Source: Candidatus Sulfomarinibacteraceae bacterium
GTDB taxonomy: Bacteria; Acidobacteriota; Thermoanaerobaculia; Thermoanaerobaculales; Sulfomarinibacteraceae
Direction: 5' to 3'
Length of the DNA: 64,000 nucleotides
Assembly: GCA_963823345.1 (NCBI GenBank)
Contig: CAWGLE010000004.1
Coordinates: 513,166-577,165 of the forward strand
This document shows positions 21,228-43,880 of this stretch, one piece after another. Made by a program: the position numbers and the translations under genes. Each line of letters begins with the position of its first letter. Position 1 is the stretch's first letter. The notes below the pieces were generated by a model. It saw only the letters and a program-made list of their open reading frames with translations. It had not been told where the DNA came from and ran no database searches.

Positions 21228-23898
21228 AATTCCGGAGTGCCCGCCAAGGCGGCCCGCCGCTCATTCACCACTCCGGCACCTCGGCCCATCCCGGGAACGG
21301 ACCGACCTCGATCTTCCAGCCGGTAGAGGATTCCTCGTCCCGGACGACGCGGAGGTTTGTGAGGGTCTTGAGCTTGGCGATCAGCTCGTCGTGCGGCAGG
21401 GTGTGGAGCGGCGGCTTCGAGAGGTCGGGCATGGGCCAGACTCGAGAGGTATCGTCGATGCCCGACGACGACGAGCCAGGCGTTGTCGGGGGAGACGAAC
21501 TTGTAGCCGATCGCGCCCTCTGGCCGAGGAGGAGGTGAGGTGTTGTCCGTCCGATCCGGCCGACCTGGATCGTGCCGTCCGATTCGACCCGCGACCCAGA
21601 TCGTCGCCGTCGGGGCTGATCGAGGGATTGCCCGAAATAAGAAAATCAAGGTCTCGAGCGCCGTCGGTCCTCACGTCGAAGAGCTTTGTCGGCTCGGCAC
21701 CGGTTCATACCGCGAATCGGTGTCCCAGCAGGAGGGCCCTCGGCGGTCGGCGGTCATCGACATCGACGAGTGCCGCCGCTGGGGACCCGATGACTTCTTC
21801 GTACGTCCCGGCGTCGAGGTCCCATCGCAGCAGGCCGTTCGCACCGCTGTGTAAAGGCTGCTTTCGTCCACAAATGCGAGATGGACCGCCGCGTACCCCT
21901 CGTAGCCCTCCGGGTCCACGGGCTGTTCGAAGACCCGCACCTCGTCCGTGTCGAGGTCCCACACCCGAAGCGTCGCCTGGCCTTCCGATTGGGCGCTCGC
22001 CGCCGCCACCAGCCGCCCGCTCGGCGAGAAGCCGCCGGCGACCAGCGCTCGCTGGCAGGAAAACCGAAGAGATTCCGGGCCTCTCCACGGTCACCGAGAG
22101 CAGGAAGCTGCTGCGGCCGTACTCAGCGCCAGCACGTACCGAACGGTCGGGTCGACGGTCATTCATGTGTCCGACAGCTCCGATTCCGGTGGCAACATCA
22201 GGTCGACGATGTCGTCTGGGTGTTTCCGGGCACCGGCCAGAGCCGCACCCGGGTTGCCGGGTGATTCACCGAACAGTCGATGGCGACAAGGAAACGACCG
22301 TCACCGGTGAAGCCCTGCTCTACCAGCCCTTGATGACGATTGGGAGGGGGTCTCGGAGCGGCCACAACCCGTTCACTTTGTCGACGTCCGTCGCGCAATC
22401 CAGTCTCCGTGGGGTTGAAGCGCATGGCGAAGCTGGTGGTCTGGCGGAGCTGCAACGGTTGGCGTGGCGGATCGCCGCGAGGTCCCACAATGTCACGGGG
22501 TACCCGGATAACGAGTATTACGATGGCCCGACGCCCCGCGGGTCCGGGACGAGGCTATCGCTCGGACGCCCTCCGGCCGCCGCATTCGTTTACGGGGCAA
22601 CCAGGAGCCGACCGTCCAGGGACCACAGGATGATCTCGCCGCTGCTGTCGTCGCGAGAAGAATTCGCTCCGTCGCGCCCCAGATTTCGACGAACAACACC
22701 GTCTGACGAGTGGCGGCCGAGCAGCGTGTCGGACACGTCTTCGATGACCGGCAGAGGGCGGGAATATACGCCGTTCCCCTTGGAGTAGAGCCATGCATTC
22801 CCCCGCGGATCGAAGATGCTCGTGGACTGGTGCCGACGGCGCGAAAGTCGACCGTGCCGAGGTCTTCGGCCTCGCCGTCCGGCAGCTTCCACCGGACGAG
22901 CTTGAGCGGCCACGGCTCGCCGGCTGGGGGTGAGGATCGCGCGCCGACCTCAGCGAGGAGGTGCTGCTCGCCCACCTGCCACCACGCTCGGCCGCCGAGC
23001 TCGATCGTGGCGACGAGATCGCCCCGCGGCATCGACCACACCCGCACGCGGGTCTCGCTGTTGTGGCCGGTGACGAGAAAATCGTCACGGCTCCAACCAC
23101 ATTGGATCGGATTGTTGGCAGAAACCGCATGACCGCCGAGGACGATCGGACGGCCTCCGGCCTTCTCGTGGACCAGCACGTCCTGATTGACGATTCCCCG
23201 TCCCGCGAGCCACTGCCCGTCGGGGCTGAAGCAGGAGCCCGCGATCTGTCCCCGGGTGAAATGGCGCGGGTCGAGCACCCTGACCGGCGGTCCCGCCCAC
23301 AACGCCCGCACCGCAAACAGGCGCGCTTCACGCGAGTCTGCGAGCTCGAGGCTCGAGGTCGCGTAGGCGAGCGCCTCGGTGGGGTCCTTCTCGATCTGCA
23401 CCTGGGCCAGGGCGAGCAGCTTCGAGGCCTCGGCGCGGCGGGTCTCGAGGACGCTGCGGCGCCAGAAGGTGCCGACAAACGGCTGCCGATGACCAGGGCC
23501 AGCGCGATTGCTGCCGCTACCGCGATCCGGCGCCGCCGTCTCCGCCGCGTCGCGAGGGAGGTCATGGCGGCAGCGAAGGCCTCCTCGAGCTCGGTGAGGC
23601 CGCCCGGGTAGCGCTCCCGCCATACGGCAAACTCGCGGTAGGCGGAGCCGGTCCACAGCATGTCGTCGGTGCGGCCGTGCTCGTCCCAGGTCTTGCGCCG
23701 CCTGCCGCAGCTGGTCGCGCAGCTGGGCGGCGTCGGCGTCCTGGGTCTGCCAGCGCACGAGGCGCGGCCAGTTGGCGAGCAGCGACTCGTGGATGATTTC
23801 GACGCGGCGGGTGGGTTCCTGTTCGTCTTCGTGGATCTCGTACGAGGTCAGGAGCCGGGCGTCGATGAGTTCTCGCAGCACTTCTTCTGCGGCAGAGC

Positions 23899-23964
23899 GG
23901 GAGGGGATAAACCCCTCCCCTACGGCTTTCCTTGCGTTCGTAGGGGCGGGGTTTATCCCCGCCC
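23899..23964. repeat. REPIN type 2 embedded in paralogue A coding region
   Basis: GGGAGGGGATAAACCCCTCCCCTAC-ggctttccttgcgttc-GTAGGGGCGGGGTTTATCCCCGCCC. On the minus strand it is translated as ..AGINPAPTNARKAVGEGFIPS... Confidence 0.8.
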
Positions 23965-24993
23965 TGCGATGGTCCCCGTCAAAAATTGATAGCAACTCGT
24001 TCCATTCTCGGACCGCCCGGGTGCCTTCGGCGGTGACGAGGTTGCGGAAGAGCTCGCGGACGATGGGAATTCGTTCGGCACCGATGCGGTCGATGGTGGC
24101 TTCGGCGTGTTGGGCCAGCGCGCCGGCGACGCCGCCGATCTCCTGGTACGCTTCGCGGGTGAGGAGACCGCTCTCCTTGTCGCGCCGCTCCCACAGGCGC
24201 GCAGCCGCAAACGCCAGCAACGGCAGGGCGCCGCGCTCGCCCTCGACCTCGGCCAGCATCTCGTCCACCAACTCGTCGTCCTCGAAGCGGTAGCCGCACT
24301 GCAGCGGCGGGCTGGGACAGGGCGCGTCGGAGAGCGGCGCCGGTCGGTGGGTCGAGCAGCGTGAGGTCGGCGAAGACCGGCGCGAGGGCTTCGTGGTCGC
24401 GACACCGATCAGGAAGTCGTCCCGCATGCGACAGCAGCACGAAGCACGTCGGCCTCGAGCGCGAACGCGGCGAGCAGTGTCCGCGAACCTCTGCTGTATC
24501 GTCGGCGGAGTTCTGAGTGAACAGCTCCTCGAACTGATCGACGATCACCAGAGTGCTCGGTCGTCGCTTGCCGCCACCGCGCGACGACGTCGACCGCCAC
24601 GTCCGGTCGTCGCGGCCGCGAGCACGAGTCCATCGCCTCGGCGTCACCGGCCATCGCGGCGCCAACGCCCGTCCGCAGCGACGCTGACGGGTCGTTGCCG
24701 GGTGTGCAGATCGGACGGTGCCCCAGCCGGGCCGTGCGGTCGCAATCAGGCCTGCACGAAGGAACGAAGTCTTGCCTGCGCCCGGAGGCCCGACCAACCC
24801 GAGCATCCTCGGCGGCCCCTCGAGCTTGCGCCACATCTGCTCGACCTCGGCCTCGCGGCCGAAGAAGTACTCGGCATCAGCTTCGGTGAAGGATGCGAGA
24901 CCGGGGTAGGGGTGGAGGTCGTCGGCGCCCTCGACTCGGAGGGTCACGTCCTCGAGGGCGCGGGTGAGAGTGTGGGCGGAGTTGTATCGGTCT

Positions 24994-25797
24994 TCACGGT
25001 CCTTTCTTGACGGCCTTTTGGATCACCGCTGCCCACGGCGTGTCGGGGACTTTGGCAGGCTCGGATCGCACACCGTCCCACACGCTCTGGCGGGAGTCGA
25101 AGCTCTTGATGCCGTCGGGCTCGACCATCTCGGCGAGCACCACGCCCGCTGCGTAGACGTCGGCCCTGGCATCGAGCGTCTGCCCCGCGGCCTGCTCGGG
25201 CGACATGTAGGCGGGCGTGCCCGCGACCGTGCCACCGCCCTCGGTCTCCTGGCGGGCGAGGCCGAAGTCCATCACCACGACTCGTCCGGCGCGGGTGAGC
25301 ATGATGTTTTCAGGCTTGATGTCGCGGTGGATCAGGCCGGCCTTGTGGATGGCTTCGAGGCCCGCCAGGAACTGCGAGGCGATGTCCTGGGCTTCCTTGA
25401 GCTCGAGGGGGCCGCGCTCCTGCAGCACGCCGAGCAGCGTCGCCCCGTCGACGTACTCCATCGACACCAGCTCGCGGCCCTCGACCTCGATCAGGTCGAA
25501 GATCCGGCAGACGTTGGGCGACACCACCTCGCGCGCGGCACGCACCTCCTGGCGCAACAGCTCGAGGCGCCGCTCGGATTTGAAGAACTCGGGCCGCAGC
25601 GCCTTCAGCGCCACCTCGACCCGCAGCTTGAGGTCGAAGGCGTGCCACACCTCGCCCATCCCGCCGCGGCCCAGCATCTCGAGGATCTGGTAGCGCTCAC
25701 CCAGCACCTGGCCGGGCGCGAAGCCCTTCATCCCCTCCGGCAGGTCGAGGGTCTCGCCCTCGCCCTCGGTGCGGGTGGTGAGGTCGTGGTCAGTCAT
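24994..25797 (-). CDS. Stand-alone Hanks-type Ser/Thr kinase ORF (intact N-terminal remnant of paralogue A)
   Basis: 267 aa with GRGGMGEVW, VALK, HRDIKPEN, DFG and GTPAYMSPE. It terminates at TGA 24994-24996 after an extra base near 25001 relative to paralogue B. Confidence 0.6.
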   Translation of the reverse strand: MTDHDLTTRTEGEGETLDLPEGMKGFAPGQVLGERYQILEMLGRGGMGEVWHAFDLKLRVEVALKALRPEFFKSERRLELLRQEVRAAREVVSPNVCRIFDLIEVEGRELVSMEYVDGATLLGVLQERGPLELKEAQDIASQFLAGLEAIHKAGLIHRDIKPENIMLTRAGRVVVMDFGLARQETEGGGTVAGTPAYMSPEQAAGQTLDARADVYAAGVVLAEMVEPDGIKSFDSRQSVWDGVRSEPAKVPDTPWAAVIQKAVKKGP

Positions 25798-25831
25798 CGT
25801 ATACCCACACTCGCGACATGACTGGATCATG

Positions 25832-25879
25832 TGCAGGCGGGACGCCTGCACCACACACCCGGCAGCCGGGACGGCTGCC
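25832..25879. repeat. Two REP hairpins with 8-bp stem and GGA loop
   Basis: TGCAGGCG-gga-CGCCTGCA (25832-25850; also at 42080-42098) and GGCAGCCG-gga-CGGCTGCC (25861-25879). Confidence 0.75.
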
Positions 25880-25972
25880 CCACAACGGACTATCGGCCGT
25901 CTCGGTCGGGCACGTGCTCCACGGCCCAGGGCGCGGCCGTCGCGACAAAAACTCATCTGAGGTATCCTCGAC

Positions 25973-26412
25973 GTGGAGGCCCCGATCATGAACTCGAACG
26001 TTGGTCCGGCCGAGCGCATCACCGCAGTGCTGTCGGCTCGTCCGGAGATCCTCGAAGCGTACCTCTTCGGGTCCGGGCGCGAGGTGAGGGCCAGGCGCAC
26101 AGCGATATCGACATCGCTGTTTTCATCGATGAAGCGAAGGTCGAACCGGGCCCCTTCGGATACCGAGCAGAGCTGACATCGGCGCTGATGAGCGGCCTCG
26201 GCACCAACGCCGTCGATGTCGTGGTGCTCAACCGCGCGCCGCCGCTTCGTGTACCACCGGGTCCTGCGCGACGGCTGCGTCTGTGTTCACGCGACCTTCG
26301 TGCAACCACGGTTCGCGAGGGCAGGGCCCTCTCACGCCACTGCGATTTCGTGCCGCAGCTGGCGAAGATCGACGCCATACTAGGTGCTCGAGCGCCGTTC
26401 TCGGAGAGGTAG
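25973..26412 (+). pseudogene. mntA: MntA-type minimal nucleotidyltransferase (antitoxin), copy 1, frameshifted
   Basis: ..RITAVLSARPEILEAYLFGS.. (frame 2) then ..GEGQAHSDIDIAVFIDEAKVEPGPFGYRAELTSALMSGLGTNAVDVVVLN.. (frame 1). There is a 1-nt deletion near 26071-26080 relative to copy 2, plus a +1/-1 pair around 26245-26290. Confidence 0.65.
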
Positions 26413-26414
26413 TC

Positions 26415-26845
26415 GTGGGCCCGGGTGAAATCGACGTCCTGATCATACGTCGCCACCTGGCCGCTCTCCGCGAGTCGCTCCAGGTCCTCGCCGCTCGCAA
26501 TGAGGTCTCTCTCGAGGAACTCGACGCCGACACCGAGCTGCTGTGGGTCGTGGAACGCGGTCTCCAGCTCTGCGCACAAAACGCGCTCGACATCGCGACC
26601 CACATCGCGGCAAGCAGGGGCGGGACGTCCCGGACTACGCCAGCGCCATCGACGAGCTCGGGCGCCTCGACGTGCTCGACCATGATTTCGTACGCGAGTT
26701 TCGCAACGTTGCGGGCTTCCGGAACGTGCTGGTGCACGGCTATCTCGATGTGGACCTGGATGTCCTGTACACGCTCCTGCACGACCGTCTCGGAGACTTC
26801 GAGTCCTTTGCGGCCCGAATCGAGACCTACCTCGAAAACCTCTGA
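26415..26845 (+). pseudogene. hepT: HepT-type HEPN (DUF86) toxin, copy 1, frameshifted
   Basis: GTG 26415 lies 2 nt after the mntA stop. The N-terminal half is in frame 0 (..LWVVERGLQLCAQNALDIATHIAA..). The C-terminal half is in frame 2 (..DVPDYASAIDELGRLDVLDHDFVREFRNVAGFRNVLVHGYLDVD..; Rx4H motif). The shift is near 26605-26625. Confidence 0.65.
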
Positions 26846-29432
26846 GGCCCGCCTGTGCCCGCCAGGGTCGCCTGATCTCGGATGAGATCGCCCGAAGAAC
26901 AATCGTCTCCTCACGGCATCACCATGTCGGCACCGTTTCCCACCCGGGAAGGGATCGTGGGTCAGCTTCCATCCGGTGGAGGATTCCTCGTCGCGGACGA
27001 CGCGGAGGTTGGTGAGGGTCTTGAGTTTGGCAATGAGCTCCTCACGCGGCAGGGTGTGGAGCGGGGCCTTCGAGAGGTCGGGCATGGGCCAGAGGCGGAC
27101 TGTTCCATCATTACCCCCGGACGCGATCCATCGACCGAGGGGGTCGATTGCGAATGTCCACACCGTGCTCTCGTGACCGAGCAGAAGATGCGGTTCTTCT
27201 CCGGTCAGGGGACCAACGCGGATCTCGCCATCCCGGTCCCCGGTAACGGCAAGAGTCCCAGCTGGATCGATGCCAACAGCTGATATATTGTTCCCGAATC
27301 GTTCGAGGCTGGTTTTCGTCCCTGAGTCGAGATCGAGAAAGACGGCTTTTCCAGACAGAGGGTCCGACTTTTCATCTTCGATGACGAGCACCCGGCGCCC
27401 ATCGGCGCTCGCAGCAAACAACCCGACGCTCCCTTCGGGCTTATACAAAAGGTCACGTCGCCCACCCCGAATATCCCATTGCCACAGCCCCGACACACTT
27501 GTCGAAAGCAGACGGTCTCCTGTCGTGAATTGAAGGCAATCGGGTCGGGTTGGTTCTCCAACTTCCAGGACGGCCACTTCCTCACCTGACGGAACGTCCC
27601 AAACCCTGATCTTTTGTTCTGCAGGATCGAATCTTCCCCCTGCAGCGGCGGCCAAGCGGCCGTCGGCACTGAAGGCCACCCCCCATGTCTGACCCGTGAA
27701 ACCTTCGAGGTTGATGGAGAACCCGCCATCGGACTGCAGTAGCCGTGTGCCCGCCCCATTGGTGCCGGCCAGGATCTGCTCACCGTCTGGTGATACTGCA
27801 ATACCCGTCGTCCATGTGTTCAGTTCCAACAATATGCGCCCCGGCGGAGGAGGGTCCCCTTCGAGTGGCCACAGCCTGACGGTGCCGTCCATAGAACTCG
27901 AAGCGAGCCAACTGCCGTCGGGTGCGAATGCGAGACCGGGCACTTCTAGATCTTGTTGCCGTATGACGATGGGAGACTGCCTCGACAGCGGCCATATTGC
28001 CAACCCGGCCAGGTCAGCGGTCGCCAACCAGTCGCCTCGGGGGCTGAATGCACACTGTCGAGTTGCATGTTGTCGCCGCGGAGGAGAACCAGCGGTTCGG
28101 CGTCGATCGGCAAATCCGTTGACCACACGCGATACTTCAAATCGGGTCCCCACCGGGCCACCCGTCTGCCGGAGTCGTCCCATCTCCGCCACCCCCAACC
28201 GGTTCCACCAAGATTGAAGCGGCGAAGGAATCGGGGGGAATCTCCTGATACGGCCCAGACCGATGAAACAAAATTGCCGTCTTCTCGAGCAAGCGCTTCG
28301 AGGCGGGACCCGTCAATCGAAAACTCGAGGGAACGAATTCCTAGTGGCCCCTTGAATACAAATGGTGGAAGGACACCGCGTGGATCCCACAGTCGGATCT
28401 CTCCCCTCGACGTCCGCTGTGGCGACAAAACGCCCAAGGGGATCCACGGCAACGCCCACGGCAGTGCGACCGACCCTGCCCAAACGCCGCGCCGGAGAGA
28501 GGGCGTGGTCGCCCACCTCGGCGATGAAAACATCGCCATCAGCAACAACGCCGATCCAGGCCCCATTCTGAGGGTCGAGATCGAAGTGAGTCAGCCATTT
28601 CCCGTCTTGATCCCGTTTGACCACGAACTCCAGCGTGCCGAGGCGCTCAACTGAACCGTCGTGACCCAGGGTATCGACAACGCCGAGGTTGTTTTCCTCG
28701 ACCAGTAGAACGTGGCGATCTCTGTTCGTATCCTCCGCGATGCCTCTCGTGTACGCGGGTTCCTTGTAACGGATGTCTGCCAGCCTCGTCTCCTCTATTA
28801 CTGACCATAGGCCGTGCTCCCAGGTCCCGTCGGCACCGGACCCATAGGTTACGAAGTGCCCGGTGTTGCTGATACGCGATACGGCTCCGGCCGACGCGGA
28901 AGCCTCTGATTCAAGGTATCTGCTGGACCCGTCGGCAGAAATGACGCTCAATCGGGGACTCCCTTCGGGGACACCTCTCCTTTGTTGAACCAGCCACCTG
29001 CCGTCGGGGCTGAATGGGCAGGCCCAGACCTGGTCATCGGAGGCAACAAGCGCTGTAGGTCCTTTCCACAGCGCTTCGAGGGCAAGCAGGCGCGCACTTG
29101 GACCGTCGGCAAGTTCCAGGCTTGCGATCGCGTGGGCGACCGCTGCTGACGGGTACGACTCCAGTTCCAGCTGTCCCAGCGACACGAGGTTTGCCGCTTC
29201 GGCGCGGCGCTCCTGGAGAGCGCTCCGTTGCCACAAGATAGTCGTTGCCGCAGTTACCACTGCGGCGATCACCAGGGCCGCCGCCACTGCGGCGCGGCGT
29301 CTACTTCGTCGGCGGCCTGAAAGGGCGACCATGGCACCGGCGAACGCTTCCTCGAGTTCGGTCAATCCTCCCGGATATCGATCCCGCCACACGGCGAACT
29401 CTCGGTACGCCGAACCGGTCCAAAGCAGATCG

Positions 29433-31559: not shown

Positions 31560-31585
31560 GGATGACTCGAGAGTCGATTCCCAGT

Positions 31586-31686: not shown

Positions 31687-31722
31687 ATTTCGTTGAGTCG
31701 CCTCGGGCGTTCGGGCGGAAAC

Positions 31723-31750
31723 TCCGAAATCCGAAATCCGAAATCCGAAA
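31723..31750. repeat. Tandem 7-mer array (TCCGAAA)4
   Basis: Four perfect units, 7 nt from the stop codon of paralogue C (31758-31760, minus strand). Confidence 0.8.
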
Positions 31751-31757
31751 TCGCGAC

Positions 31758-34700
31758 TCACCATGTCGGCACCGTTTCCCAACCGGGGAAGGGATCGTGG
31801 GTGAGCTTCCAGCCGGTGGAGGATTCCTCGTCGCGGACGACACGGAGGTTGGTGAGGGTTTTGAGCTTGGCGATGAGATCCTCACGCGGCAGGGTGTGGA
31901 GCGGCGGTTTCGAGAGATCGGGCATGGGCCAGAGACGGATCGTCTTGTCCTTGCCTCCTGATGCGACCCACCGGCCAAGAGGATCGAAGGCGAGGGCGGT
32001 CACGCCGTTTTCGTGGCCAAGAAGAAGGTGGGGCTCTTCGCCGGTGATCGGCCCCACTCGAACCACACCGTCCGTGTCACCCGTCGCCACAATCTTGTTT
32101 TTTTGGTCGAGGGCGACGGCATAGACCCTGGTCCCATGGGTCTCGAGAGTCCTCGTCTCGCCAGTTTCAAAGTCCAAGAAAACAGCACGCTTTGGCGCGC
32201 TTGCTTCGAGCACATAGCCCTCAATGACGATCGCTTGTTTCCCGTCCGAGCTGGCATCAAAGAGAAAAATATTTCCCTCGTAGAGCAGTTCGCTTTCACC
32301 GGTCACGAGATCCCATTTCCGCAGCCCGAACTCGCTCGAGGAAAGGAGGTGACCGTCATTCGTGAATTGAAGACAGAACACTCGACGGCCCTCGGGATAC
32401 AGCACCGCCACTTCTTCCCCTGAAGTGCGGTCCCAAACGAGGATTCGGATCTCAGGGGTCTTTACATCCAACACGCCGGCGCAGAGCCGGCCGTCGGGAC
32501 TGATCGACGCGCCCCAAAAACTCACCGGCCCGATGTCCGGTACGGTCTGGAACTCCTCGCCCGAAAGAGAGAACAACCGAGCGCCCGACCACGCGGTACC
32601 AGCGAGGAGCTGCTCCCCGTCGGGCGTCCTTGCAAGGTCGTACATCTGTTTGCCCGGGTCCTTCAAAAGGATGCGGCCTGGAGGGAGGACATCACCCTCC
32701 AACGGCCAAAACCTCACTGTGTCATCCATCGAGGACGAAACCAGCCAGCGACCCTCCGGACCGAACAGAAGGTCCATGACCTCCTTTTCATGACGCCGGA
32801 TCACCGCCGGGTACGGCCGAGCCAGCGGCCACAGCGCGGCGCCGGCCTTGTCGGCACTCGCCAGCCAGTTTCCGTTCGGGTGGAAAGACAGGCCCCACAA
32901 GACGTCAACGTCGCCGCGGAGCAGGAACACCGGCTCGGCATCGGCAGGCGCAGCCATCGGCCAGAGCCGAATTTTGAGGTCGGAACCACTCCTGGCTATT
33001 TGCCAGCCTACACGGTTGAGGCCCCACCATCCGATACCGTCGTCACCGACTGGGAATGGGCGGAGAAATCGTGGCGGATTGGTATCAAGCAACCAGATCC
33101 ACGATGTGACCTCTCCTTCCTCAAACACCGAGGCTTCCAGTAGTGATCCATCGGCGGTGATGTCGAGAATCGCTCCCGGAGGGGCACTGAGAAGGATCGG
33201 CGGCGAATCTCCCGCGTTGTCCCAGAGGCGAATTCGTCCATCCTCGGCTATGGTGGCGAAAAAACGCCCCAACGGATCGAAGAGAACTTTCCTGACGGGC
33301 TCCACGTGGCGGCCCAGCCGGCGTGGTTCGGAGAGGCTGTGTTCGCCGATATCGATGACCAGCACGTCTTCATCCACCACCGCGCCAAGCCAGCGGCCGG
33401 TTCGGCGCTCGAGATCGGTACGGCGGATCCAATCCCTGGAGGTTTTAAAACCGAGGTCCGGGGTGCCGAGACGTTTGCGAGCGCCGCCAAAGCCGAGGAT
33501 ATCGATGCTTCCTATTTTGCCTTCGAGTACCAGGTACACCATTCGCTGCTGGGTGGCGTTGACGGCCTGTCCCAATAGGCGGGCTGGGCCGTCATAACTG
33601 GCCTCACTGAGCATTCGTCCGTCTGCAACAGACCAGAGTGCGAGGAGTGGGAGCACGGATTTGTCAAAGAACCCGAATGAACTGAAGACACCGGTCTCCA
33701 GCCCCACTCGAATATTGATCCGCCTTGACTCATGCTGGTGCTGGAGCAACTCACTGGTTCCGTCAGCCTTGATTAACCGCAGGTTGCCGGTCCCGTCTCC
33801 TGACTGCACCAGGGCGCGCCCGTCGGGGGTGAACTCGGCTTGCCAAGAACTCTCGTCATTGATGACCAGTGCGGTCGGCCCCCCCCACAACGCCGCCTGG
33901 GCCAAATAGCGGGCGCTCGGACTGTCGGCGAGTTCGAGGCTGGTGATGGCGTATGCGACGGCGGCGGACGGATAGGAATCGAGTTCCTGTTGCCCGAGGG
34001 CAAGGAGTTCATTCGCTTCAGCACGGCGGGTCTCTCTTTCGCTCTTCGCCCACATCCCGCCGAGAATCGAGGCAACTCCGGCGAGCACAACCAACGCAGC
34101 TGCCATGACGAGCCGCCGCCGCCGTTTTCGACGGGTGGCAAAGGAGGTCATTGCCGTGGCGTAGGCCTCCTCGGTCGACGTGAGACCACCCGGGTATCGT
34201 TCCCTCCACAGTTCGAACTCGCGGTAAGCAGTTCCGGTCCAGAGTCGATCATCGTGCCGGCCGTGCTCGTCCCAGGAGCGAGCTGCCTGCCGAAGCTCGT
34301 CGCGGAGCTGGGCTCCTTCCTGGTCCTGCGTTTGCCAGCGCACGAGGCGCGGCCAGTTGGCGAGGAGGGACTCGTGGATGATCTCCACGCGGCGGGTGGG
34401 TTCGTGCTCGTCTTCGTGGATTTCATAGGAGGTCAGCAGGCGGGCGTCGATGAGTTCGCGAAGGACCTCTTCGGGCGATTTGCTGTGGGAATCGCTGAAT
34501 ATTGAAAGAAGCTCACCCCATTCGCGCACCGCGCGCGTGCCCTCTGCGGTCACCAGGTTCCGGAACAGTTCGCGGACGATCGGAATGCGCTCCGAACCGA
34601 TGTGGTCGATAGTTGCTTCGGCGTGCTGGGCGAGCGCGCCGCCGACGCCGCCGATCTCCTGGTACGCTTGACGGGTGAGCAGCCCAGTCTCGCGGTCGCG

Positions 34701-34919
34701 CTTCTCCCACAGACGTGCGGCAGCGAACGCCAGTAGCGGCAACGCGCCGCGTTCGCCTTCGACCTCGGCCAGCATCTCCTCGATCAGCTCATCGTCTTCG
34801 AAGCGGTATCCGCACTTTGTCGCGGGTTGCACGCTGCGCGGCGCAGATCGCCCCCGGTCGGCGGGTCGAGCACCGTGAGTTCTGGAAGATCGGATCGCAG
34901 CGAATCGTGGGCATTGCAT
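31758..34919 (-). CDS. Intact 1053-aa ORF of paralogue C: distal NTPase/helical region - TM - WD40 - conserved tail
   Basis: Homology begins at ..KCGYRFEDDELIEEMLAEVEGERGALPLLAFAAARLWEKRD.. and runs uninterrupted to ..THDPFPGWETVPTW*. The first ~35 codons are out-of-frame junk, so the true start and expression are unclear. Confidence 0.45.
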   Translation of the reverse strand: MQCPRFAAIRSSRTHGARPADRGRSAPRSVQPATKCGYRFEDDELIEEMLAEVEGERGALPLLAFAAARLWEKRDRETGLLTRQAYQEIGGVGGALAQHAEATIDHIGSERIPIVRELFRNLVTAEGTRAVREWGELLSIFSDSHSKSPEEVLRELIDARLLTSYEIHEDEHEPTRRVEIIHESLLANWPRLVRWQTQDQEGAQLRDELRQAARSWDEHGRHDDRLWTGTAYREFELWRERYPGGLTSTEEAYATAMTSFATRRKRRRRLVMAAALVVLAGVASILGGMWAKSERETRRAEANELLALGQQELDSYPSAAVAYAITSLELADSPSARYLAQAALWGGPTALVINDESSWQAEFTPDGRALVQSGDGTGNLRLIKADGTSELLQHQHESRRINIRVGLETGVFSSFGFFDKSVLPLLALWSVADGRMLSEASYDGPARLLGQAVNATQQRMVYLVLEGKIGSIDILGFGGARKRLGTPDLGFKTSRDWIRRTDLERRTGRWLGAVVDEDVLVIDIGEHSLSEPRRLGRHVEPVRKVLFDPLGRFFATIAEDGRIRLWDNAGDSPPILLSAPPGAILDITADGSLLEASVFEEGEVTSWIWLLDTNPPRFLRPFPVGDDGIGWWGLNRVGWQIARSGSDLKIRLWPMAAPADAEPVFLLRGDVDVLWGLSFHPNGNWLASADKAGAALWPLARPYPAVIRRHEKEVMDLLFGPEGRWLVSSSMDDTVRFWPLEGDVLPPGRILLKDPGKQMYDLARTPDGEQLLAGTAWSGARLFSLSGEEFQTVPDIGPVSFWGASISPDGRLCAGVLDVKTPEIRILVWDRTSGEEVAVLYPEGRRVFCLQFTNDGHLLSSSEFGLRKWDLVTGESELLYEGNIFLFDASSDGKQAIVIEGYVLEASAPKRAVFLDFETGETRTLETHGTRVYAVALDQKNKIVATGDTDGVVRVGPITGEEPHLLLGHENGVTALAFDPLGRWVASGGKDKTIRLWPMPDLSKPPLHTLPREDLIAKLKTLTNLRVVRDEESSTGWKLTHDPFPGWETVPTW

Positions 34920-36304
34920 GCGGCTACGAAGTCATCGCGCATTGAAAGCAGCACGTGGATGTCGCTCTCGAGAACGGATCGCCGCAGCAGTTCTGCGAAC
35001 CTCCGCTGTTCTTCGATACCGTTCTGAGTGAACAGCTCTTCGAACTGATCGACGACTACGAGAGCATGTGTGTCCGTTCGCGCCCAGCTGGCCGAGTACC
35101 TGAACGGCGACGTCGGCATCGCCGAAACGAGGAAGCAGCTCGACCGCGTCCGGATCTCCAGCCGTTTCGCCGGCCACCACCCCGGCGAGCGAGGAGGTGG
35201 CTGCGTTTCCGGGAGTCGATCGGATGATCCCCCAGTCCGGCGGAGCGTGGGCCACGCAGCCCGGCCGCGAGAAACGAGGATTTTCCTGCCCCCGAGGGCC
35301 CGATAATTGCGAGCATTCGCGGCGGCCCCTCGAGCTTGCGCCACATCTGCTCGACCTCGGCCTCGCGGCCGAAGAAGTACTCGGCGTCTGCCTCCGTGAA
35401 TGATGCGAGCCCGGGATAAGGGTGGAGGTCGTCGGCGCCTTCGACGCGGAGGGTCACGTCTTCGAGGGCGCGCGTCGAGGGTGTGGGCGGAGTTGAAGCG
35501 ACCCTCGCGGTCTTCCTGACGGCCTGTTGGATGACCTGCGCCCACGGGGTGTCCGGGATCTTTGCGGCTCGGAGCGCACGCCTTCCCAGACGCTCTGCCG
35601 GGAGTCGAAGCTCTTGATTCCGTCGGGGCTCACCATCTTCGGCCAGCACCACGCCGCTGCGTAGACGTCTGCCCGCGCGTCGAGCGTCTGTCCCGCCCCT
35701 GTTCGGCGACATGTAGGCCGGAGTGCCGGACACCGGCCTCCGCCCTCGGTTTCCTGACGGGCGAGGCCGAAGTCGATCACGACGACCCGACCGGCCCGGG
35801 TGAGCATGATGTTTTCCGGCTTGATGTCGCGGTGGATCAGGCCGGCCTTGTGGATGGCTTCGAGCCCGGCGAGGAACTGCGAAGCGATGTCCTGGGCTTC
35901 TTTGAGTTCGAGCGGCGCGCGCTCCTGGAGCACTCAAGCAACGTCGCGCCGTCGACATACTCCATCGACACCAGCTCACGGCCTTCGACCTCGATCAGAT
36001 CGAAGATGCCGGCAGACGTTGGGAGAGACCACCTCACGAGCGGCGCGGACTTCCTGCCGCAACAGTTCCAGCCGCCTCTCGGACTTGAAGAACTCGGGCC
36101 GCAATGCCTTCAGCGCCACCTCGACCCGCAGCTTCAGGTCGAAGGCGTGCCACACCTCGCCCATCCCGCCACGTCCGAGCATCTCGAGGATCTGATAGCG
36201 GTCACCCAGCACCTGTCCGCGGTGCGAAGCCCTTCATCCCCTCCGGCATGTCGAGGGTCTCGCCCTCACGCTCGGTGCGGGTGGTGGAGATCGTGGTCAG
36301 TCAT
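31758..36304 (-). pseudogene. Paralogue C of kinase - STAND NTPase - TM - WD40 protein (N-terminal kinase/NTPase part decayed)
   Basis: ATG 36304 (MTDHDL..). An extra C gives a stop after 12 codons. Kinase and NTPase pieces lie in ORFs 35976-36212, 35454-35933, 35056-35979 and 34784-35545, with several shifts and a few replacements (E->D, G->A, M->I). It lacks the REPIN insert (..LLSIFSDSHSKSPEEVL..). Confidence 0.65.
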
Positions 36305-36482
36305 TGGTTATCCGAGTCGGAAGTGACCGGTTTGGTGGACGGGTCACTCCGAGGCCCGCCACCGCCCACCCGGCGGGCCGGGACGGCTGCCCCACAACGG
36401 ACACATTGGCCACTTTGTCGGGCACGCGCTCCGCGGCCCCGGCGCTGTCGTCGCGACAGGAACTATCTGAGGTATCCTCGAC

Positions 36483-36923
36483 ATGGAGGCCCCGTTCATG
36501 GATCCGAAAGATCTGCTGGCTGGACGCATCACCGCGGTGCTGTCGGCTCGTCCGGAGATTCTCGAGGCGTATCTCTTCGGATCCCACGCTCGGGGTGAGG
36601 GCCAGGCGCACAGCGATATCGACATCGCTGTGTTCATCGATGAAGCACGAGGTCGGACCGGGCCCCTTCGGATACCGAGCGGAACTGACCTCCGCGCTGA
36701 TGAGCGGTCTCGGCACCAACGCCGTCGATGTCGTGGTGCTCAATACCGCGCCGCCTCTCCTGTACCACCGGGTTCTGCGCGACGGCTCCCGTCTGTACTC
36801 TCGCGACCTTCGCGCGACGACGGTTCGCGAGGGCCGGGCCCTCTCGCGCCACTGCGATTCGTGCCGCAGCTCGCGAAGATCGACGCCATACTAGGTGCTC
36901 GAGCGCCGTTCTCGGAGAGGTAG
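36483..36923 (+). pseudogene. mntA: MntA-type nucleotidyltransferase, copy 2, middle third out of frame
   Basis: ..YLFGSHARGEGQAHSDIDIAVFIDEA (frame 0), then a +1 shift near 36645-36655. ..PGPFGYRAELTSALMSGLGTNAVDVVVLNTAPPLLYHRVLRDGSRLYSRDL..ALSRHCD is in frame 1, then a -1 shift near 36858 returns to ..FVPQLAKIDAILGARAPFSER*. Confidence 0.65.
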
Positions 36924-36925
36924 CC

Positions 36926-37357
36926 GTGGGCCCGGGTGAGATCGACGCCCTGATCATTCGGCGGCACCTGGCCGCTCTCCGCGAGTCGCTCCAGGTACTC
37001 GCCGCTCGCAGCGACGTCTCTCTCGAGGAACTCAACGCCGACACCGAACTGCTGTGGGTTGTTGAGCGCGGTCTCCAACTCTGCGCACAAAACGCGCTCG
37101 ACATCGCGACGCACATTGCAGCCGGCCGGGGGCGCGATGTCCGGACTACGCCAGCGCCATCGACGAGCTCGGACGCCTCGGCGTGCTCGACCGATGAGTT
37201 CGTACACGAGTTTCGCAACGTCGCCGGTTTCCGGAACGTGCTGGTGCACGGCTATCTCGATGTGGACCTGGATGTCCTGTACACGCTCCTGCACGACCGT
37301 CTCGGAGACTTCGAGTCCTTTGCGGCCCGAATCGAGACCCACCTCGAAAACCTCTGA
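36926..37357 (+). CDS. hepT: HepT-type HEPN (DUF86) toxin, copy 2; open frame but with a 19-codon recoded patch
   Basis: GTG 36926. ..EFRNVAGFRNVLVHGYLDVDLDVLYTLL.. (Rx4H). Between ~37140 and ~37197 a -1/+1 pair turns the ancestral VPDYASAIDELGRLGVLD into VRTTPAPSTSSDASACSTD. Confidence 0.6.
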   Translation: MGPGEIDALIIRRHLAALRESLQVLAARSDVSLEELNADTELLWVVERGLQLCAQNALDIATHIAAGRGRDVRTTPAPSTSSDASACSTDEFVHEFRNVAGFRNVLVHGYLDVDLDVLYTLLHDRLGDFESFAARIETHLENL

Positions 37358-37430
37358 GCCTCGGTTGTGCCCGCCAGGGTCGCCTGATCTCGGATGAGAT
37401 CGCCCGAAGCGTAAGCGTCTCCTCATGACA

Positions 37431-40400
37431 TCACCACGTCGGCACCGTTTCCCACCCCGGGAAGGGATCATGGGTGAGCTTCCACCCAGTGGTGGACTCT
37501 TCGTCGCGGACGACGCGGAGGTTGGTGAGGGTTTTGAGCTTGGCGATGAGATCCTCACGCGGCAGGGTGTGGAGCGGCGGCTTCGAGAGGTCGGGCATAG
37601 GCCAGAGGCGGATCTCGGTTCCCGACGACGAGGCGATCCAACGATCCAGAGGGTCGACAGATACGGCGTAGATCTCGTCCGGATTTCCAAGCAGAAGATG
37701 AGGTTCCTCGCCAGTTATGGGTCCGACGCGGATCACGCCGTTCGAGTCACCCGTTACAGCGACCGTGCCCGATGGATCTATCGCGACCGCTGTCACGCGG
37801 TCCCCATGGGACTTGAGCGTATTTGTCAATCCGGTCTCGAGGTCGAGCGACACGGCTTTACCTAAAAGGGCCAAGGACGCCCTCTCGTTCCCAACTTCGG
37901 ACAGAAGCGCGTGGGTACTGTCCACGCCAACCGCAAACTTCTCCACAGGTTTTTCGAACAGGGCTTCCGTGACACCGGTTTCAAAATCCCAGCCGAACAA
38001 ACCCGATGAGTGCGAATACAGAACGAGCCCCCCCTCCGTGAATTGGAGGAAAGGAGTGGCATTGGTTTTGGCCAATTCGAGCGCTGCTATCTCTTCGGAC
38101 GAGGAAAGGTCCCACACTCGTACAACGGTTTCCTCATAATTCCCTTTCAAACCGGTGGCTGCAGCGAATCGGCCGTCGGGGCTGAACGCCGCTCCCCATA
38201 CAATTTTGGCGACGCCTGGAAGATCAACAGGTTTCTCATTGCTGAGTGAGAGCAGTTTTGTGCCGGTGGCGTGGGTCCCGAGAAGGAGGTGTTCCCCGTC
38301 AGGGGAAGCAGCGAGACCGTACGGATAAGCCCCCGCCTCGAACACAGTCCGGGCCGCCGGCACGTTATCGCCCTCCAAATCCCACACGCGAACGGCGCCG
38401 GTTGAGTCGACACCGCTCGTCGCGAGCCACCTGCCCTCGGGTCCGAATACCAAATTCATGGCTCGCTCCTCGTACCGATTGATCACCGCTGGGTAGGGTC
38501 AGGTCACTGGCCAGAGAGTCAGGCCGTTTGTAAACGAGGTGGCCAACCACCCGCCATTCGGGTGAACTCTCACGCGTCTCGGGGTGCTGGCGTCACCTCG
38601 TTGCAAGATTGTGGGTTCGGCGTCAGCCGGCGCCCGCAACCACCACAGCCGGGTTTTCGGGTCTGGATTGAGGATGCTGACGATCTGACCTTCAACTGGA
38701 TTGAGCGTCCAGCCCGCGGTTCCGCTGCTCTTCCCAAGATCGATGTGGCGAAGCAAGGTCGGTTCGCGGTCCCGAAGAGACCAGATCCACGATTCGACCA
38801 TGTCGTTTTTCCGTGTGATAACCTCGAACAACGATCCGTCGCCACTGATACTGAGTCGAATGTCGCCGCGTGGCCCCCCTTTGATCTCCCGTGGCGGCGA
38901 CTCCCCATCCAGGTCTCGCAGACGAATCCGCCCGTCTTCGGAGAGTGAAACGACGAATCGACCCTGGGGGTCGCATTGGAGGCGCACGACTGGAGTATCG
39001 AGAAAATCGAGATGTCGCGGCTCTGAGAGTTCGTGGTCTCCGACCTCGATCACGTAGACATTTTGACCGGACCCAACGGCAAACCATTTTCCTTTCGGGG
39101 CGCTTTGGCAAAGAACTGTCGAACGCGAGTCAAATGGGAGAGCGCCGAGGCGTTCGGAGCTGCCGTCGAATCCTAAGGCATCGATGAAGAAACGGTCGTC
39201 CTCTATCGACATCAGCAATACGCGGGCTCGCCCCAGGTCGAAATAGATTCTCCGAGTATTTTCTGGAATCCCGGATCGGCCGGTGGAAAGCAGTTTTTTT
39301 TCAGGAGCCGACCAGAGCGCCCATAGTTCGGCGTTGCCCCAGGGACTTGTCGCGAAAACTCCTGATTCCGTATCCATCGTCAGACCAACCCAGTCATCGT
39401 GCACGTCCTCTAACAGTTCATCGGTTCCTTCAGCACCGATAACATGCAGTTGGTAAGGGGCCGCATCCGTTGCCTGCACGAGCCACTGACCGTCAGGGGT
39501 GAACTCGATTTCCCACGACGGAATTTCGTTGACAACAAACGCTGTCGGGCCTTTCCAGAGCGCCTTGAGTGCGAGGAGCCGAGCCTCTGAACTGTCCGCC
39601 AGTTCGAGACTGGCCGTCGCGTATGCCACTGCGGCTGACGGATACGACTCGAGTTCTACCTGCGCCTGGGAAAGAAGGGTGGCGGCCTCGGCGCGGAGAG
39701 TTTCGCGGACGCTTCGCTGCCAGAATGTGCCGACGACCGCGAGGCCGGCGAGGAGGACAGCGAACCCTGCGCTCACCGCTATTCGACGCCTGCGCCGACG
39801 TCGCCCGGCGAGGGAGGTCATGGCGTTCCCGAAATCTCTTTCGATCTCGGTCAGGCCACCGGGATAGCTTTCGCGCCACACGGCGAACTCTCGGTAAGCC
39901 GAACCGGTCCAAAGCAGATCGTCAGATCGGTCGTGCTCGCTCCACGTCTTCGCTGCCTGCCGGAGTTGATCGCGGAGCTGGGCCGCATCGGCGTCCTGGG
40001 TCTGCCAGCGCACCAGCCGCGGCCAGTTGGCGAGCAGAGATTCGTGGATGATTTCTACTCTACGGGTTGGTTCGTGTTCGTCTTCGTGGATTTCGTATGA
40101 GGTCAGGAGTCGGGCGTCGATGAGTTCGCGAAGGACCTCTTCTGCGGCAGTGCGGGAGGGGATGAACCCCTCCCCTGCGGCTTTCCCTGTCTTCGTAGGG
40201 GCGGGGTTTATCCCCGCCCTGGGGTAGCTCCCACCGAAAATCGAAAGGAGTTCATTCCATTCACGGACGGCGCGGGTGCCTTCGGCGGTGATGAGGTTTC
40301 GGAAGAGTTCTCTGACGATGGGGATCCTCTCGACACCGGTGCGATCGATTGTTGCCTCGGCGTGCTGCGCCAATGCCCCGCCGACGCCGCCGATGTCGTG

Positions 40401-42045
40401 GTACGCCTTTCGGGTGAGAAGCCCGTTCTCCTTGTCGCGTCGTTCCCAAAGCCTCGCCGCCGCAAAGGCAAGCAGCGGGAGTGCTCCGCGTTCGCCTTCG
40501 ACCTCGGCGAGCATCTCGTCGACCAGATCGTCGTCCTCGAAGCGGTAACCGCACTGCAGAGCAGGTTGGGTCAGGGCGCGCCGAAGCGGTGCACCCTCCG
40601 GTGGGCCGAGCATCGTCATGTCGGCGAGCGCCGGACGCAGTGGCTTGTTCTGGTGGCAGCGGAAGAGATAGTCATCGCGCATGCTCAGCAGCACGACGAT
40701 GTCGGCCTCGAGAACGAGCGCGTTCAAGAGTTCTGCGATCGTGCTCTGGATCTCTGGCGGGTTGAGGGTGAACAGCTCCTCGAACTGATCGATGATCAAT
40801 AGTGCGTGGTCATGCTTGCGACGCCAACGAGCGACAAGGTCCACCGCGACGTCCAGCTCGTGAAAGCGTAGCAAGAGTTTTACGCCATCAGAATCTCCCG
40901 CCGTCTCGGTTGCGAAGGCTCCGGCAAGGGCGTTGACGGGTGCGTTGCCGGGGGTGCATCGAACAATTCCCCAGCCTGGCGGAGCGTGCGGCGCCAGCCC
41001 CGCCCCCAAGAAGGACGTTTTTCCGGCTCCCGAAGGGCCCGCGATTGCGAGCATTCGCGGCGGCCCTTCGAGCTTGCGCCACATCTGCTCGACCTCGGCC
41101 TCGCGGCCGAAGAAGTACTCGGCGTCTGATTCGGTGAAGGAGGCGAGGCCGGGGTAGGGGTGGAGGTCGTCGGCGCCTTCGACTCTGAGGGTGACGTCTT
41201 CGAGCGCTCTGGTCAGGGTGTGGGCGGAGTTGTAGCGGCCCTCGCGGTCTCTTTTTACCGCCTGTTTAATGACTGGCGCCCATGGCGTGTCGGGGACCTT
41301 TGCGGGCTCCGAGCGCACGCCTTCCCAGACGCTCTGCCGGGAGTCAAAACTCTTGATGCCTTCGGGACTCACCATCTCGGCCAACACCACGCCCGCTGCG
41401 TAAACGTCGGCCCGCGCATCGAGGGTCTGGCCTGCAGCCTGCTCCGGCGACATGTAGGCGGGTGTGCCGGCGACAGTCCCGCCGCCCTCGGTCTCCTGGC
41501 GGGCGAGGCCGAAGTCCATCACCACCACCCGCCCGGCACGGGTGAGCATGATGTTTTCGGGTTTGATGTCGCGGTGGATGAGGCCAGCCTTGTGGATCGC
41601 TTCGAGGCCGGCGAGGAACTGCGAGGCGATGTCCTGCGCTTCCTTGAGCTCGAGCGGACCGCGCTCCTGGAGCACGCCGAGAAGCGTCGCGCCGTCGACG
41701 TACTCCATCGACACCAGCTCGCGGCCCTCGACTTCGATCAGATCGAAGATCCGGCAGACGTTGGGCGAGACCACCTCACGAGCGGCGCGGACTTCCTGCC
41801 GCAACAGTTCCAACCGCCTCTCGGACTTGAAGAACTCGGGCCGCAATGCCTTCAGCGCCACCTCGACCCGCAGCTTCGAGGTCGAAGGCGTGCCACACCT
41901 CGCCCATCCCGCCGCGGCCGAGCATCTCCAGCACCTGATAGCGCTCACCGAGCACCTGACCGGGGGCGAAGCCCTTCATCCCCTCCGGCATGTCGAGGGT
42001 TTTGCCCTCGTCCTCGGTGCCTGTGGGGAGGTCGCGGTCAGTCAT
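37431..42045 (-). pseudogene. Paralogue D of kinase - STAND NTPase - TM - WD40 protein (least damaged: one +1 frameshift, one in-frame TGA)
   Basis: ATG 42045 (MTDRDLPTGTEDEGKTLDMPEG..). An extra C at 41877 splits the kinase between the Gly loop and VALK. A 1149-aa ORF (38499-41948) follows, then TGA 38499-38501 where B and C have Arg. The same frame continues for 356 codons to ..GWETVPTW* (37431). Confidence 0.6.
40154..40219. repeat. REPIN type 2 embedded in paralogue D coding region
   Basis: GGGAGGGGATGAACCCCTCCCCTGC-ggctttccctgtcttc-GTAGGGGCGGGGTTTATCCCCGCCC, translated ..AGINPAPTKTGKAAGEGFIPS.. within the intact 1149-aa ORF. Confidence 0.8.
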
Positions 42046-43863: not shown

Positions 43864-43880
43864 TCACCAACCCGCCGCCC

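Follow-up and report, generated by a model that had tools for sequence, protein, structure and literature searches.

Frame breaks in a tandem array of kinase-nSTAND1-WD40 genes of a Sulfomarinibacteraceae bacterium are probably consensus errors and not gene decay

A tandem array of four kinase-nSTAND1-WD40 paralogues

We analyzed a window of 64,000 nucleotides from a Candidatus Sulfomarinibacteraceae bacterium, in which self-BLASTN and Pfam searches revealed four tandem minus-strand paralogues, A to D, between positions 21265 and 42045, all with the domain order Ser/Thr kinase, nSTAND1 NTPase, transmembrane (TM) helix and WD40 (Pfam: Pkinase, nSTAND1 and WD40) over ~1500 amino acids. Copies A (21268..25797), B (26922..31559) and C (31761..36304) have corrected readings of ~1507, ~1546 and ~1508 aa, respectively, and copy D (37434..42045) has a conceptual product of 1537 aa, obtained by removing one base and reading through a TGA. 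The corrected translations run to full length, with HRDIKPEN, DFG, Walker A and B, the TM helix and a conserved C-terminus, all kinase and Walker motifs being present in A as well. Pkinase (PF00069) matched at E = 1e-37 to 1.7e-43, and the motifs GRGGMGEV, VALK, HRDIKPEN and DFG, found in every copy, identify the kinases as Hanks-type Ser/Thr kinases. The nSTAND1 profile (PF20703) matched copy D at E = 1.1e-91 over positions 1-378 of 379 (308.8 bits versus a cut-off of 27.1) and copy B with 252 bits; in the corrected copies, Walker A reads GPSGAGKT (D, B and C) or GPPGAGKT (A), and Walker B (hhhhDQFEELF) was found in all four.

The family is very large: 5945 homologues pass a cut-off of E ≤ 1e-20, and among the best 120 of them the majority are 1440-1600 aa long. 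Over its full length, the copy D protein shares 70% identity with two intact homologues (P0002 and P0003), the 708-aa ORF of B clusters at ≥90% identity with an intact 1489-aa protein (P0123), and an intact 1528-aa paralogue is present in a sister assembly, L001. The array shares with bacterial STAND/NLR-like NTPases (cf. Avs) the layout of an N-terminal Ser/Thr kinase effector, a P-loop STAND NTPase and a C-terminal WD40 sensor, as well as the tandem paralogy, an effector kinase that is conserved between paralogues (93-98% aa identity) versus a diversified sensor (37-48%), and a neighborhood rich in TA and defense-type genes. It differs from Avs in the TM helix between the NTPase and the WD40 part and in its PADLOC matches, as neither the D ORF nor the distal ORF of C matched an Avs model: the matches of D, to the PD-T4-6, mad6, MkoA and PglW models, are confined to its kinase domain (residues ~25-257), and the C distal ORF gave one weak repeat match. 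A defense role for the A-D proteins may be proposed by analogy.

Two putative MntA/HepT modules (type VII toxin-antitoxin, TA) sit between the array copies, both on the plus strand. The HepT of TA1 (36305..37430) matched positions 3-120 of the 120 of its Pfam model (E = 1.7e-17) and that of TA2 (25798..26921) positions 7-57, while the MntA part gave only a weak Polbeta match (E = 8e-4). A REPIN-type hairpin lies in D at 40154..40219, as part of an in-frame insertion of 69 nt that separates the NTPase from the next domain; the same insert is found in B (29666-29731) and A (23899-23964), and an intergenic copy lies at 11856-11938. The eight REP matches of the window form four REP doublets, where shuffles gave none, and the hairpins (-22 to -33 kcal/mol, z = -4.0 to -6.5) mark these elements as REPINs, in which two inverted ~25-nt REP units and a short spacer form a strong hairpin. 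They differ from known REPINs in that three of the four sit within genes, each in the in-frame 69-nt insert at one shared position of A, B and D, and in that this insert is conserved in a second species. Directly upstream of D is a minus-strand gene for an FHA and winged-helix (Trans_reg_C) regulator (42197..42928), which also adjoins a related array in the sister assembly L083.

Distribution of the frame breaks

Lesions were called by frameshift-aware protein-to-DNA alignment against intact ~1500-aa homologues, a procedure that returned 0-4 false, paired calls on intact genes. In the whole array, about fifty single-base frame breaks were found over the four copies, almost all of them ±1-2 nt, with gene lengths kept. 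Every copy is broken, each in a different place, as a sequence-only reading of this DNA had reported with coordinates right to within ~15 nt, though A and C turned out to carry far more lesions than it listed. The complementarity between copies that it described appears, on informal judgement, not to exceed what scattered positions give.

Copy D carries one shift, a +1 at 41877 (an extra C on the plus strand, turning the coding CTC-AAG into CTCGAAG), and one in-frame TGA at 38499-38501, a single C-to-T change. A selenocysteine reading of this TGA, prompted by selD in the flank, was ruled out, as the orthologue of the sister assembly L002 has CGA (Arg) as this codon and, of 59 homologue segments aligned there, 36 have R. 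Copy B carries four shifts, +1 at ~29640 and ~28406 and -1 at ~28051 and ~26943-26949. The 11-13 shifts of copy C fall in a block at 34833..36287, in which 11 shifts of ±1/2 nt were called (the first at 36287/36222), at least one further compensated pair was absorbed by the aligner, and no in-frame stop was found. Its distal 1053-aa ORF (31758..34919) showed zero shifts in the same alignment; the first 1.47 kb of the gene holds 11 shifts versus none in the next 3.07 kb (clustering P = 4e-6). Copy A is the most heavily affected, with about 30 shifts of ±1/2 nt and 1-3 stops at 21472..25008; its kinase part (25797..25009) is clean up to the first shift at ~25005-25008, and its private indels are of 1-2 nt, save two 3-nt deletions and one 6-nt insertion. 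The ORFs that stay open in the array cover the kinase in A, the kinase-NTPase part in B and the sensor in C.

When TA1, TA2 and the L002 module were aligned as DNA, about six private 1-nt indels were identified in TA1 and about five in TA2, in which HepT is broken. Both modules had been described as shifted, and each does carry several 1-nt indels, but the HepT ORF of TA1 is open over the whole Pfam model. The MntA/HepT of L001 were discarded as references because, at 35-45% identity, they had diverged too far and produced spurious shifts.

Pfam coverage is full-length for about 26 ORFs of the flanks, and the only frame break found in 43 kb is a single +1 at ~51980, in a short G run of the minus-strand bamA (omp85) gene (49390..52174), which bears out the earlier observation that flanking ORFs are intact apart from the omp85 shift. 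With at least 47 lesions in the 20.8-kb array versus one in 43.2 kb of flanks (Poisson P ~1e-75), the array is 100-fold enriched, and even the six lesions of B and D alone exceed the flank rate (P = 1e-7). A GC3 frame plot, which detects frameshifts without a reference, was too noisy to use owing to the weak third-position GC signal of the array genes.

Signatures of the lesions and comparison with sister assemblies

Several observations bear on whether the broken genes have decayed. Measured against their L002 orthologues, the C-terminal parts of A (20 shifts) and C (0 shifts) have dN/dS values of 0.386 and 0.385, and the kinases of C (8 shifts) and A (1 shift) values of 0.075 and 0.073; dN/dS is low alike in riddled and intact segments, and the relaxed constraint that marks pseudogenes is not seen. 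Nor does copy A exceed its L002 orthologue in private substitutions or amino acid changes: a relative-rate test gave 37 private amino acid changes in the window versus 52 in L002, and private substitutions at conserved sites were symmetric between the two (14/13, 21/24, 17/16 and 34/31). In-frame stops number 1-3 in A and 0 in C, and larger deletions are absent. Bacterial mutation-accumulation work gives an indel-to-substitution ratio of about 1:10, so that about a dozen stops and roughly 300 substitutions would be expected alongside 30 real indels. Lesions that end inside genes likewise argue against decay, since decay should run evenly along a dead gene. For the array copies, then, the substitution excess, stops, gene-wide spread and larger deletions of neutral decay were not found as a pattern. 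The kinase conservation had been called perfect and held to argue against old decay; identity falls short of that, but the argument is sound, as the paralogous kinases combine a dS of 0.4-0.7 with an omega of 0.02-0.09. The same values rule out gene conversion as the source of the conservation and indicate purifying selection, not homogenization.

The indels have a signature of their own. Private 1-nt insertions are allele doublets, in which the inserted base equals the alternative allele of the adjacent variable column, mostly at a third codon position. In the window, 9 of 10 private insertions are such doublets against a simulated null of 0.35 (P = 4.8e-4), as are 18 of 20 over three assemblies (null 0.35, P = 5.3e-7); for copy A with two comparators only, the count is 5 of 12 against 0.154 (P = 0.026). 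The G inserted in D at 41877 is the alternative Leu allele (CTG) found in copy C, a CTC/CTG doublet, and the B insertion at 29640 is a CGC/CGG doublet. Private 1-nt deletions showed no link to variable or third-codon sites (11/17 versus 0.51). Many lesions lie outside G/C runs, and doublets of two alleles at variable sites point to mixed pile-ups and not to homopolymer miscalls.

Three sister assemblies with Flye-style contig names (L002, L083 and L001) have the same family broken at other positions. In L002 the shifts per copy number 46 (D), 15 (C), 13 (A) and 10 (B), in L083 all three copies have theirs only in the 5' ~1.4-2.1 kb, and L001 has a broken D-like copy; L002 and L083 derive from a single sample and are not fully independent of each other. 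Other genes are split in these assemblies as well: the essential topA in L001 and, in L083, an outer-membrane gene of the TonB type. None of the lesions of B or D is present in the L002 orthologues. A 1-nt indel at 36220 is common to C of the window and C of L002, another at 24429 to A of the window and A of L002, and A of the window shares two 1-nt indels with copy 2 of L083; such shared indels could be real or systematic. The kinase of a short-read (Illumina) contig (L007) aligns with 0 gaps to B, 1 to D, 3 to A and 11 to C. The protein database holds no near-identical intact A-type sensor, the best matches being 57-59% identical, and hence offers no same-species control. Majority-rule repair of A from three orthologues did not restore a single ORF, because two of the comparators are themselves noisy and share some of the indels. 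The closest GTDB relatives are MFD MAGs, and the closest genome records belong to a Nanopore-only project polished once with Medaka.

Origin and meaning of the frame breaks

Taken together, these data make it highly probable that the frame breaks of the array are consensus errors from mixed read pile-ups, not gene decay. Assembly or polishing error had been among three explanations offered by the sequence-only reading, and it gains support from the low dN/dS, the blocks, the doublets and the breaks at other positions in sister assemblies; the mechanism appears to differ from the one proposed at the time, miscalls in G/C runs, as many lesions lie outside such runs and the insertions are doublets. 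The organism most likely carries four intact tandem genes for ~1500-aa kinase-nSTAND1-TM-WD40 proteins, and the window is very probably from a long-read, Nanopore-only metagenome-assembled genome (MAG) of an Acidobacteriota lineage, built with Flye and one round of Medaka, as the sister contigs and the error pattern suggest. Reads of related sequences, from co-occurring strains or species or from paralogous copies, may have piled onto one draft, or else parts of the draft may have been left poorly polished. The consensus would then have retained the two alleles of a variable site next to each other, giving a 1-nt insertion, or dropped bases, giving a 1-nt deletion; the failing step of the pipeline is one that we only infer. 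Residual indel errors of Nanopore-only (Flye and Medaka) MAGs, which strain heterogeneity makes worse, are known to take this form, with single-base indels that split ORFs amid normal flanks and protein similarity, essential genes hit at times and positions that vary by assembly. The present lesions differ from the usual ones in being extremely local, at about one indel per 120 nt in the blocks versus one per 43 kb outside, and from the classic homopolymer miscall in their two-allele doublets. Several observations run against consensus error: the lesions are concentrated in the array while the flanks are nearly clean, which calls for a local cause that we can only propose; the blocks do not simply track the parts most similar between copies, the kinase regions of B and D being clean, and the noisiest segment, the C-terminal part of A, being one to which the rest of the array region offers no long match at the DNA level; the private deletions lack the link to variable sites; and a few 1-nt indels recur in another assembly. 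A minority of the lesions may be real, namely the D TGA, the isolated B shifts and the two indels, at 36220 and 24429, that are also found in L002.

Real, recent pseudogenization, in which true mutations inactivated all four copies and both TA modules, would account for the enrichment over the flanks, for the plain CGA-to-TGA transition in D, for the broken copies in related genomes and for the two to four indels common to assemblies, and redundant, conflict-type gene families do turn over fast. As in pseudogene decay, multiple frame breaks fall in paralogous, probably dispensable genes. We nevertheless regard it as unlikely, and for the bulk of the lesions it is contradicted: the substitution load, stops, larger deletions and relaxed dN/dS of decaying genes are lacking (dN/dS being very low in the C kinase despite its 8 shifts), private changes are symmetric, the lesions end abruptly inside C, the insertion doublets have no mutational rationale, essential genes are hit by the same kind of lesion (bamA here, topA in L001), and the same genes would need independent, indel-only inactivation in three lineages. 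Quite unlikely is a mixture in which most lesions are artefacts but true mutations account for the isolated B and D lesions and for the +1 that C shares near its start, leaving one or two copies inactivated or N-terminally shortened. The excess of B and D lesions over the flank rate speaks for it, as does the +1 at 36220 in both assemblies, which would cost only ~35 N-terminal residues if translation started at the following GTG, and a nonsense substitution is less typical of long-read consensus error than an indel. But the B and D lesions are absent from the L002 orthologues, the insertions in D and at 29640 in B are doublets, and generally lowered consensus quality across the locus explains these lesions equally well. 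A functional split, in which kinase-only, kinase-NTPase and sensor-only products co-exist and cooperate, is extremely unlikely, although the open ORFs of A, B and C would fit it and WD40-only proteins of 740-810 aa occur on large contigs in the database. The one such protein examined (P0125, from L083) is the tail of a copy with 14 shifts, the breaks fall off domain borders (the C ORF begins mid-nSTAND1, at position 197 of the 379 in the profile, and lacks the P-loop), the stretches between the ORFs are well-conserved coding sequence with a scrambled frame, orthologues break elsewhere, and an intact single ORF is the rule, thousands of homologues being single ORFs of ~1500 aa.

Were the lesions real, an array of NLR-like kinase-STAND-WD40 sensors and two TA modules would have been silenced very recently by almost pure single-base indels, which we hold to be very unlikely; the process would have acted in blocks, sparing neighbors, independently in three related Acidobacteriota lineages, and immune-type genes would then have a mechanism of frameshift mutagenesis or switching that targets their locus. 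If they are instead consensus errors, as we favor, the locus taken at face value would be annotated as a pseudogene graveyard or a novel 'split' signaling system, both wrongly. The case is cautionary, in that multi-copy, strain-variable loci such as STAND/NLR-like arrays can reach 100-fold the contig indel background in Nanopore-only MAGs, and such errors inflate pseudogene counts and fragment immunity and signaling gene families. Even where reads are lacking, artefacts of this kind can be flagged by testing insertions for allele doublets and by comparing the dN/dS of riddled segments with that of intact ones. Judging from the corrected sequence, the underlying biology is most likely that of an ordinary member of a very large family, with four intact paralogues that combine a conserved kinase with a diversified WD40 sensor and have an FHA-wHTH regulator next to them.

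Layout of the array and census of its lesions

Self-BLASTN placed four tandem paralogues on the minus strand of window positions 21265-42045 (A, 25797..21268; B, 31559..26922; C, 36304..31761; D, 42045..37434), with 69-87% DNA identity among copies across the 5' ~2.5 kb and the 3' ends. One putative plus-strand MntA/HepT module lies between D and C and another between B and A. In Pfam searches the array proteins matched Pkinase, WD40 propellers and nSTAND1, the last with up to 308.8 bits over profile positions 1-378 of 379. Removal of one base from D and read-through of its TGA gave a 1537-aa protein that combines a kinase and a P-loop NTPase with WD40 repeats; a TM helix, preceded by an Arg-rich stretch, separates the NTPase from the repeats.

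Frameshifts and in-frame stops were called against intact homologues using a purpose-written frameshift-aware protein-to-DNA aligner. In intact control genes the aligner made no shift calls when the reference shared the gene's sensor subtype; references of other subtypes led to 0-4 false calls, which came in pairs. D carries one +1 at 41877 and one in-frame TGA at 38499-38501, and B four shifts (~29640, ~28406, ~28051 and ~26943-26949). C carries 11 called shifts and at least one compensated pair between 36287/36222 and 34833, its distal 1053-aa ORF being free of lesions, and A carries ~30 shifts and 1-3 stops between 25008 and 21472. An earlier, sequence-only reading had listed lesions in all four copies; its coordinates were all correct upon alignment, but its list was incomplete, the load of A and C being far higher. 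Its further claim that both MntA/HepT modules are damaged was borne out, as each contains ~5-6 private 1-nt indels.

That reading had described the flanking genes as intact apart from one omp85 shift. About 26 flanking ORFs cover their Pfam models end to end (among them PEPCK, an aminotransferase, SelD, UvrB, MraW, PBP, MurE, MurF, TamB and NAD kinase), and a +1 near 51980 in bamA (omp85; 49390-52174, minus strand) was the sole frame break found outside the array. This +1 falls in a short run of G where the first POTRA domain begins, just past the signal peptide; as the gene is essential, a background error in the contig's consensus is the best reading. The rate in the flanks predicts 0.48 lesions for the array, against at least 47 seen (P ~1e-75).

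Allele doublets and sister assemblies

We examined the private 1-nt insertions in a 13-sequence alignment, with a null obtained by simulation, and found that they represent the alternative allele of the adjacent variable site, which is usually at a third codon position: at 41877 in D, CTC/CTG becomes CTCG, and the same form is seen in CGG/CGC to CGGC, CTG/CTC to CTCG, GCC/GCG to GCCG and GTG/GTC to GTGC. Such doublets account for 9/10 window insertions (P = 4.8e-4) and 18/20 insertions overall (P = 5.3e-7), the null being 0.35; deletions showed no doublet-type pattern in the same test. Doublets are the expected output of a consensus in which two related sequences are mixed, and we know of no mutational process that predicts them.

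Intact close relatives exist: a database homologue (P0123) that falls in a ≥90% identity cluster with the 708-aa ORF of B is a complete protein of 1489 aa, and its gene adjoins an intact 1528-aa paralogue. An Illumina contig, aligned with the kinases, gave gap counts of 0 (B), 1 (D), 3 (A) and 11 (C). Damage of this type, at different positions, was seen in three sister assemblies whose contigs are named in Flye style. L002 has its highest load in D (46 shifts), all three copies on the 1.14-Mb contig L083 are shifted in their 5' ~1.4-2.1 kb only, and L001 contains a shifted D-like copy. Genes of other kinds are also broken, namely a TonB-type outer-membrane gene of L083 (314 + 663 aa, 13790-16718) and the essential topA of L001 (291 + 595 aa, 19417-22076), whose frame changes inside the conserved TSTLQQEA region. 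These two splits are independent evidence of indel errors in the sister assemblies.

Decay, split products or consensus error

The sequence-only reading had offered three explanations: real and recent pseudogenisation, assembly or polishing error, and a split or modular state. Pseudogenisation fails on dN/dS, substitutions, stops and evenness. The lesions are ±1-2 nt in size, gene lengths are kept, and frame-corrected translations give complete proteins with every catalytic motif present. Compared with the orthologous syntenic locus of L002 (ERZ25039600 contig_45849; DNA ~85% identical to the window), dN/dS was low and independent of lesion load, being 0.386 for the C-terminal part of A (20 window shifts) and 0.385 for that of C (0 shifts), and 0.075 for the kinase of C (8 shifts) and 0.073 for that of A (1 shift). 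Relative rates with an outgroup revealed no acceleration of A (37 private amino-acid changes in the window, 52 in L002), and at conserved sites private substitutions were symmetric. In bacterial mutation-accumulation work the indel-to-substitution ratio is roughly 1:10; on this basis 30 real indels should be accompanied by ~300 substitutions, together with roughly twelve stops. Lesion blocks also stop within genes: the first 1.47 kb of C hold 11 and the following 3.07 kb none (P = 4e-6), and the initial 790 nt of A are without lesions. Several independent lines argue that the bulk of the lesions are not real mutations. A split state, in which partial products function as modules, fares no better, as the distal ORF of C starts at nSTAND1 profile position 197 and thus lacks the P-loop, the breaks fall off domain borders, orthologues are broken at other places, and the 'WD40-only' database protein that we inspected is the tail of a shifted copy.

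The doublets, the blocks, the low dN/dS and the differing breaks of the sister assemblies all favour the remaining explanation, and we consider it probable that most lesions are consensus errors, the earlier observation having been a correct one of an artefact. The closest genome records are 'MFD....bin' Acidobacteriota MAGs (Holophagae, Thermoanaerobaculia, 'Sulfomarinibacteraceae') with contig_N names, and we infer that the window comes from the MFD or a similar data set. The MFD MAGs are Nanopore-only, assembled with Flye and polished by one round of Medaka (PMC12313526). At a multi-copy locus that varies between co-occurring strains or species, consensus pile-ups would mix reads of different sequences, and related organisms do co-occur, as shown by L002 and L083 deriving from a single sample. 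Alternatively, draft stretches with too few confidently mapped reads may have kept an error rate close to that of raw reads, for which the density within the blocks, about 1 indel per 120 nt, is of the right order. Mixed pile-ups or an under-polished draft could each apply, block by block. The main weakness of attributing the lesions to consensus error is that the blocks do not simply follow paralogue similarity: the kinase regions of B and D are clean, and the noisiest stretch, the C-terminal part of A, has by self-BLASTN no long DNA match to the rest of the array region.

A few lesions may be real. The TGA of D is a single CGA-to-TGA change at a codon that the orthologue keeps as CGA and that encodes Arg in 36/59 aligned homologue segments. 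The +1 at 36220 (CC-CGG to CCGCGG), common to C and its L002 orthologue (~5099), may also be real and would shorten the N-terminus by only ~35 residues if the next GTG is the start; it is either an ancestral change that moved the start of C to this downstream GTG or a systematic error at the palindromic CCGCGG. A +1 at 24429 is common to A and its L002 orthologue, and two more indels are common to A and copy c2 of L083; compensated changes of ancestral origin, ambiguous alignment of a divergent stretch and systematic error are the candidate explanations for these shared indels.

Surroundings of the array and the gene family

Selenocysteine at the TGA of D was rejected, as homologues have Arg. 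Elsewhere in the window a SelD (10526-11827, minus strand; AIRS domains and an N-terminal Se/S-carrier domain) adjoins a class-V aminotransferase of the cysteine desulfurase/selenocysteine lyase type (12045-~13180, minus strand), and the organism probably uses selenium.

REPIN-type hairpins, each formed by a pair of inverted 25-nt REP units (z = -4 to -6.5), occur at 23899-23964 (A), 29666-29731 (B) and 40154-40219 (D), with an intergenic copy at 11856-11938. The coding copies sit in a 69-nt insertion that keeps the reading frame, always occupies one site, between the NTPase and the following domain, and encodes ...RAGINPAPT..GEGFIPSR...; it is present in A, B, D and the L002 orthologues of A and B, and absent from C, its L002 orthologue and both L001 copies. 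Its appearance is that of an old REP insertion, tolerated or domesticated inside coding sequence.

Besides the two MntA/HepT modules, the neighbours include a baeRF family-10 protein, two AAA_14/DUF4143 ATPases (one matching PADLOC candidate PDC-S01 at 5e-90) and two PIN modules, one paired with a MazE-type antitoxin; defence- or TA-type genes lie at 13915-15081, 15157-16317, 19866-21227 and 43444-44646, all on the plus strand. Overall the neighbourhood resembles a defence or TA island.

The family is very large, with 5945 homologue matches (E <= 1e-20), most of the best 120 being 1440-1600 aa long. Between paralogues the kinase is 93-98% identical, and its omega of 0.02-0.09 at a dS of 0.4-0.7 indicates that selection, not conversion, lies behind this conservation; the sensor has diversified to 37-48% identity. 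The layout resembles that of NLR/Avs-type tripartite sensors; PADLOC matched the array proteins via the kinase domain only, with no match to Avs models. The array genes are ordinary nSTAND1 kinase-WD40 family members with a conserved effector. Directly upstream of D lies an FHA + Trans_reg_C (winged-helix) regulator (42197-42928, minus strand), which also adjoins the kinase-STAND array of L083 (975-1670). The placement of this phospho-threonine reader beside the four Ser/Thr kinases points to a role as their downstream target.
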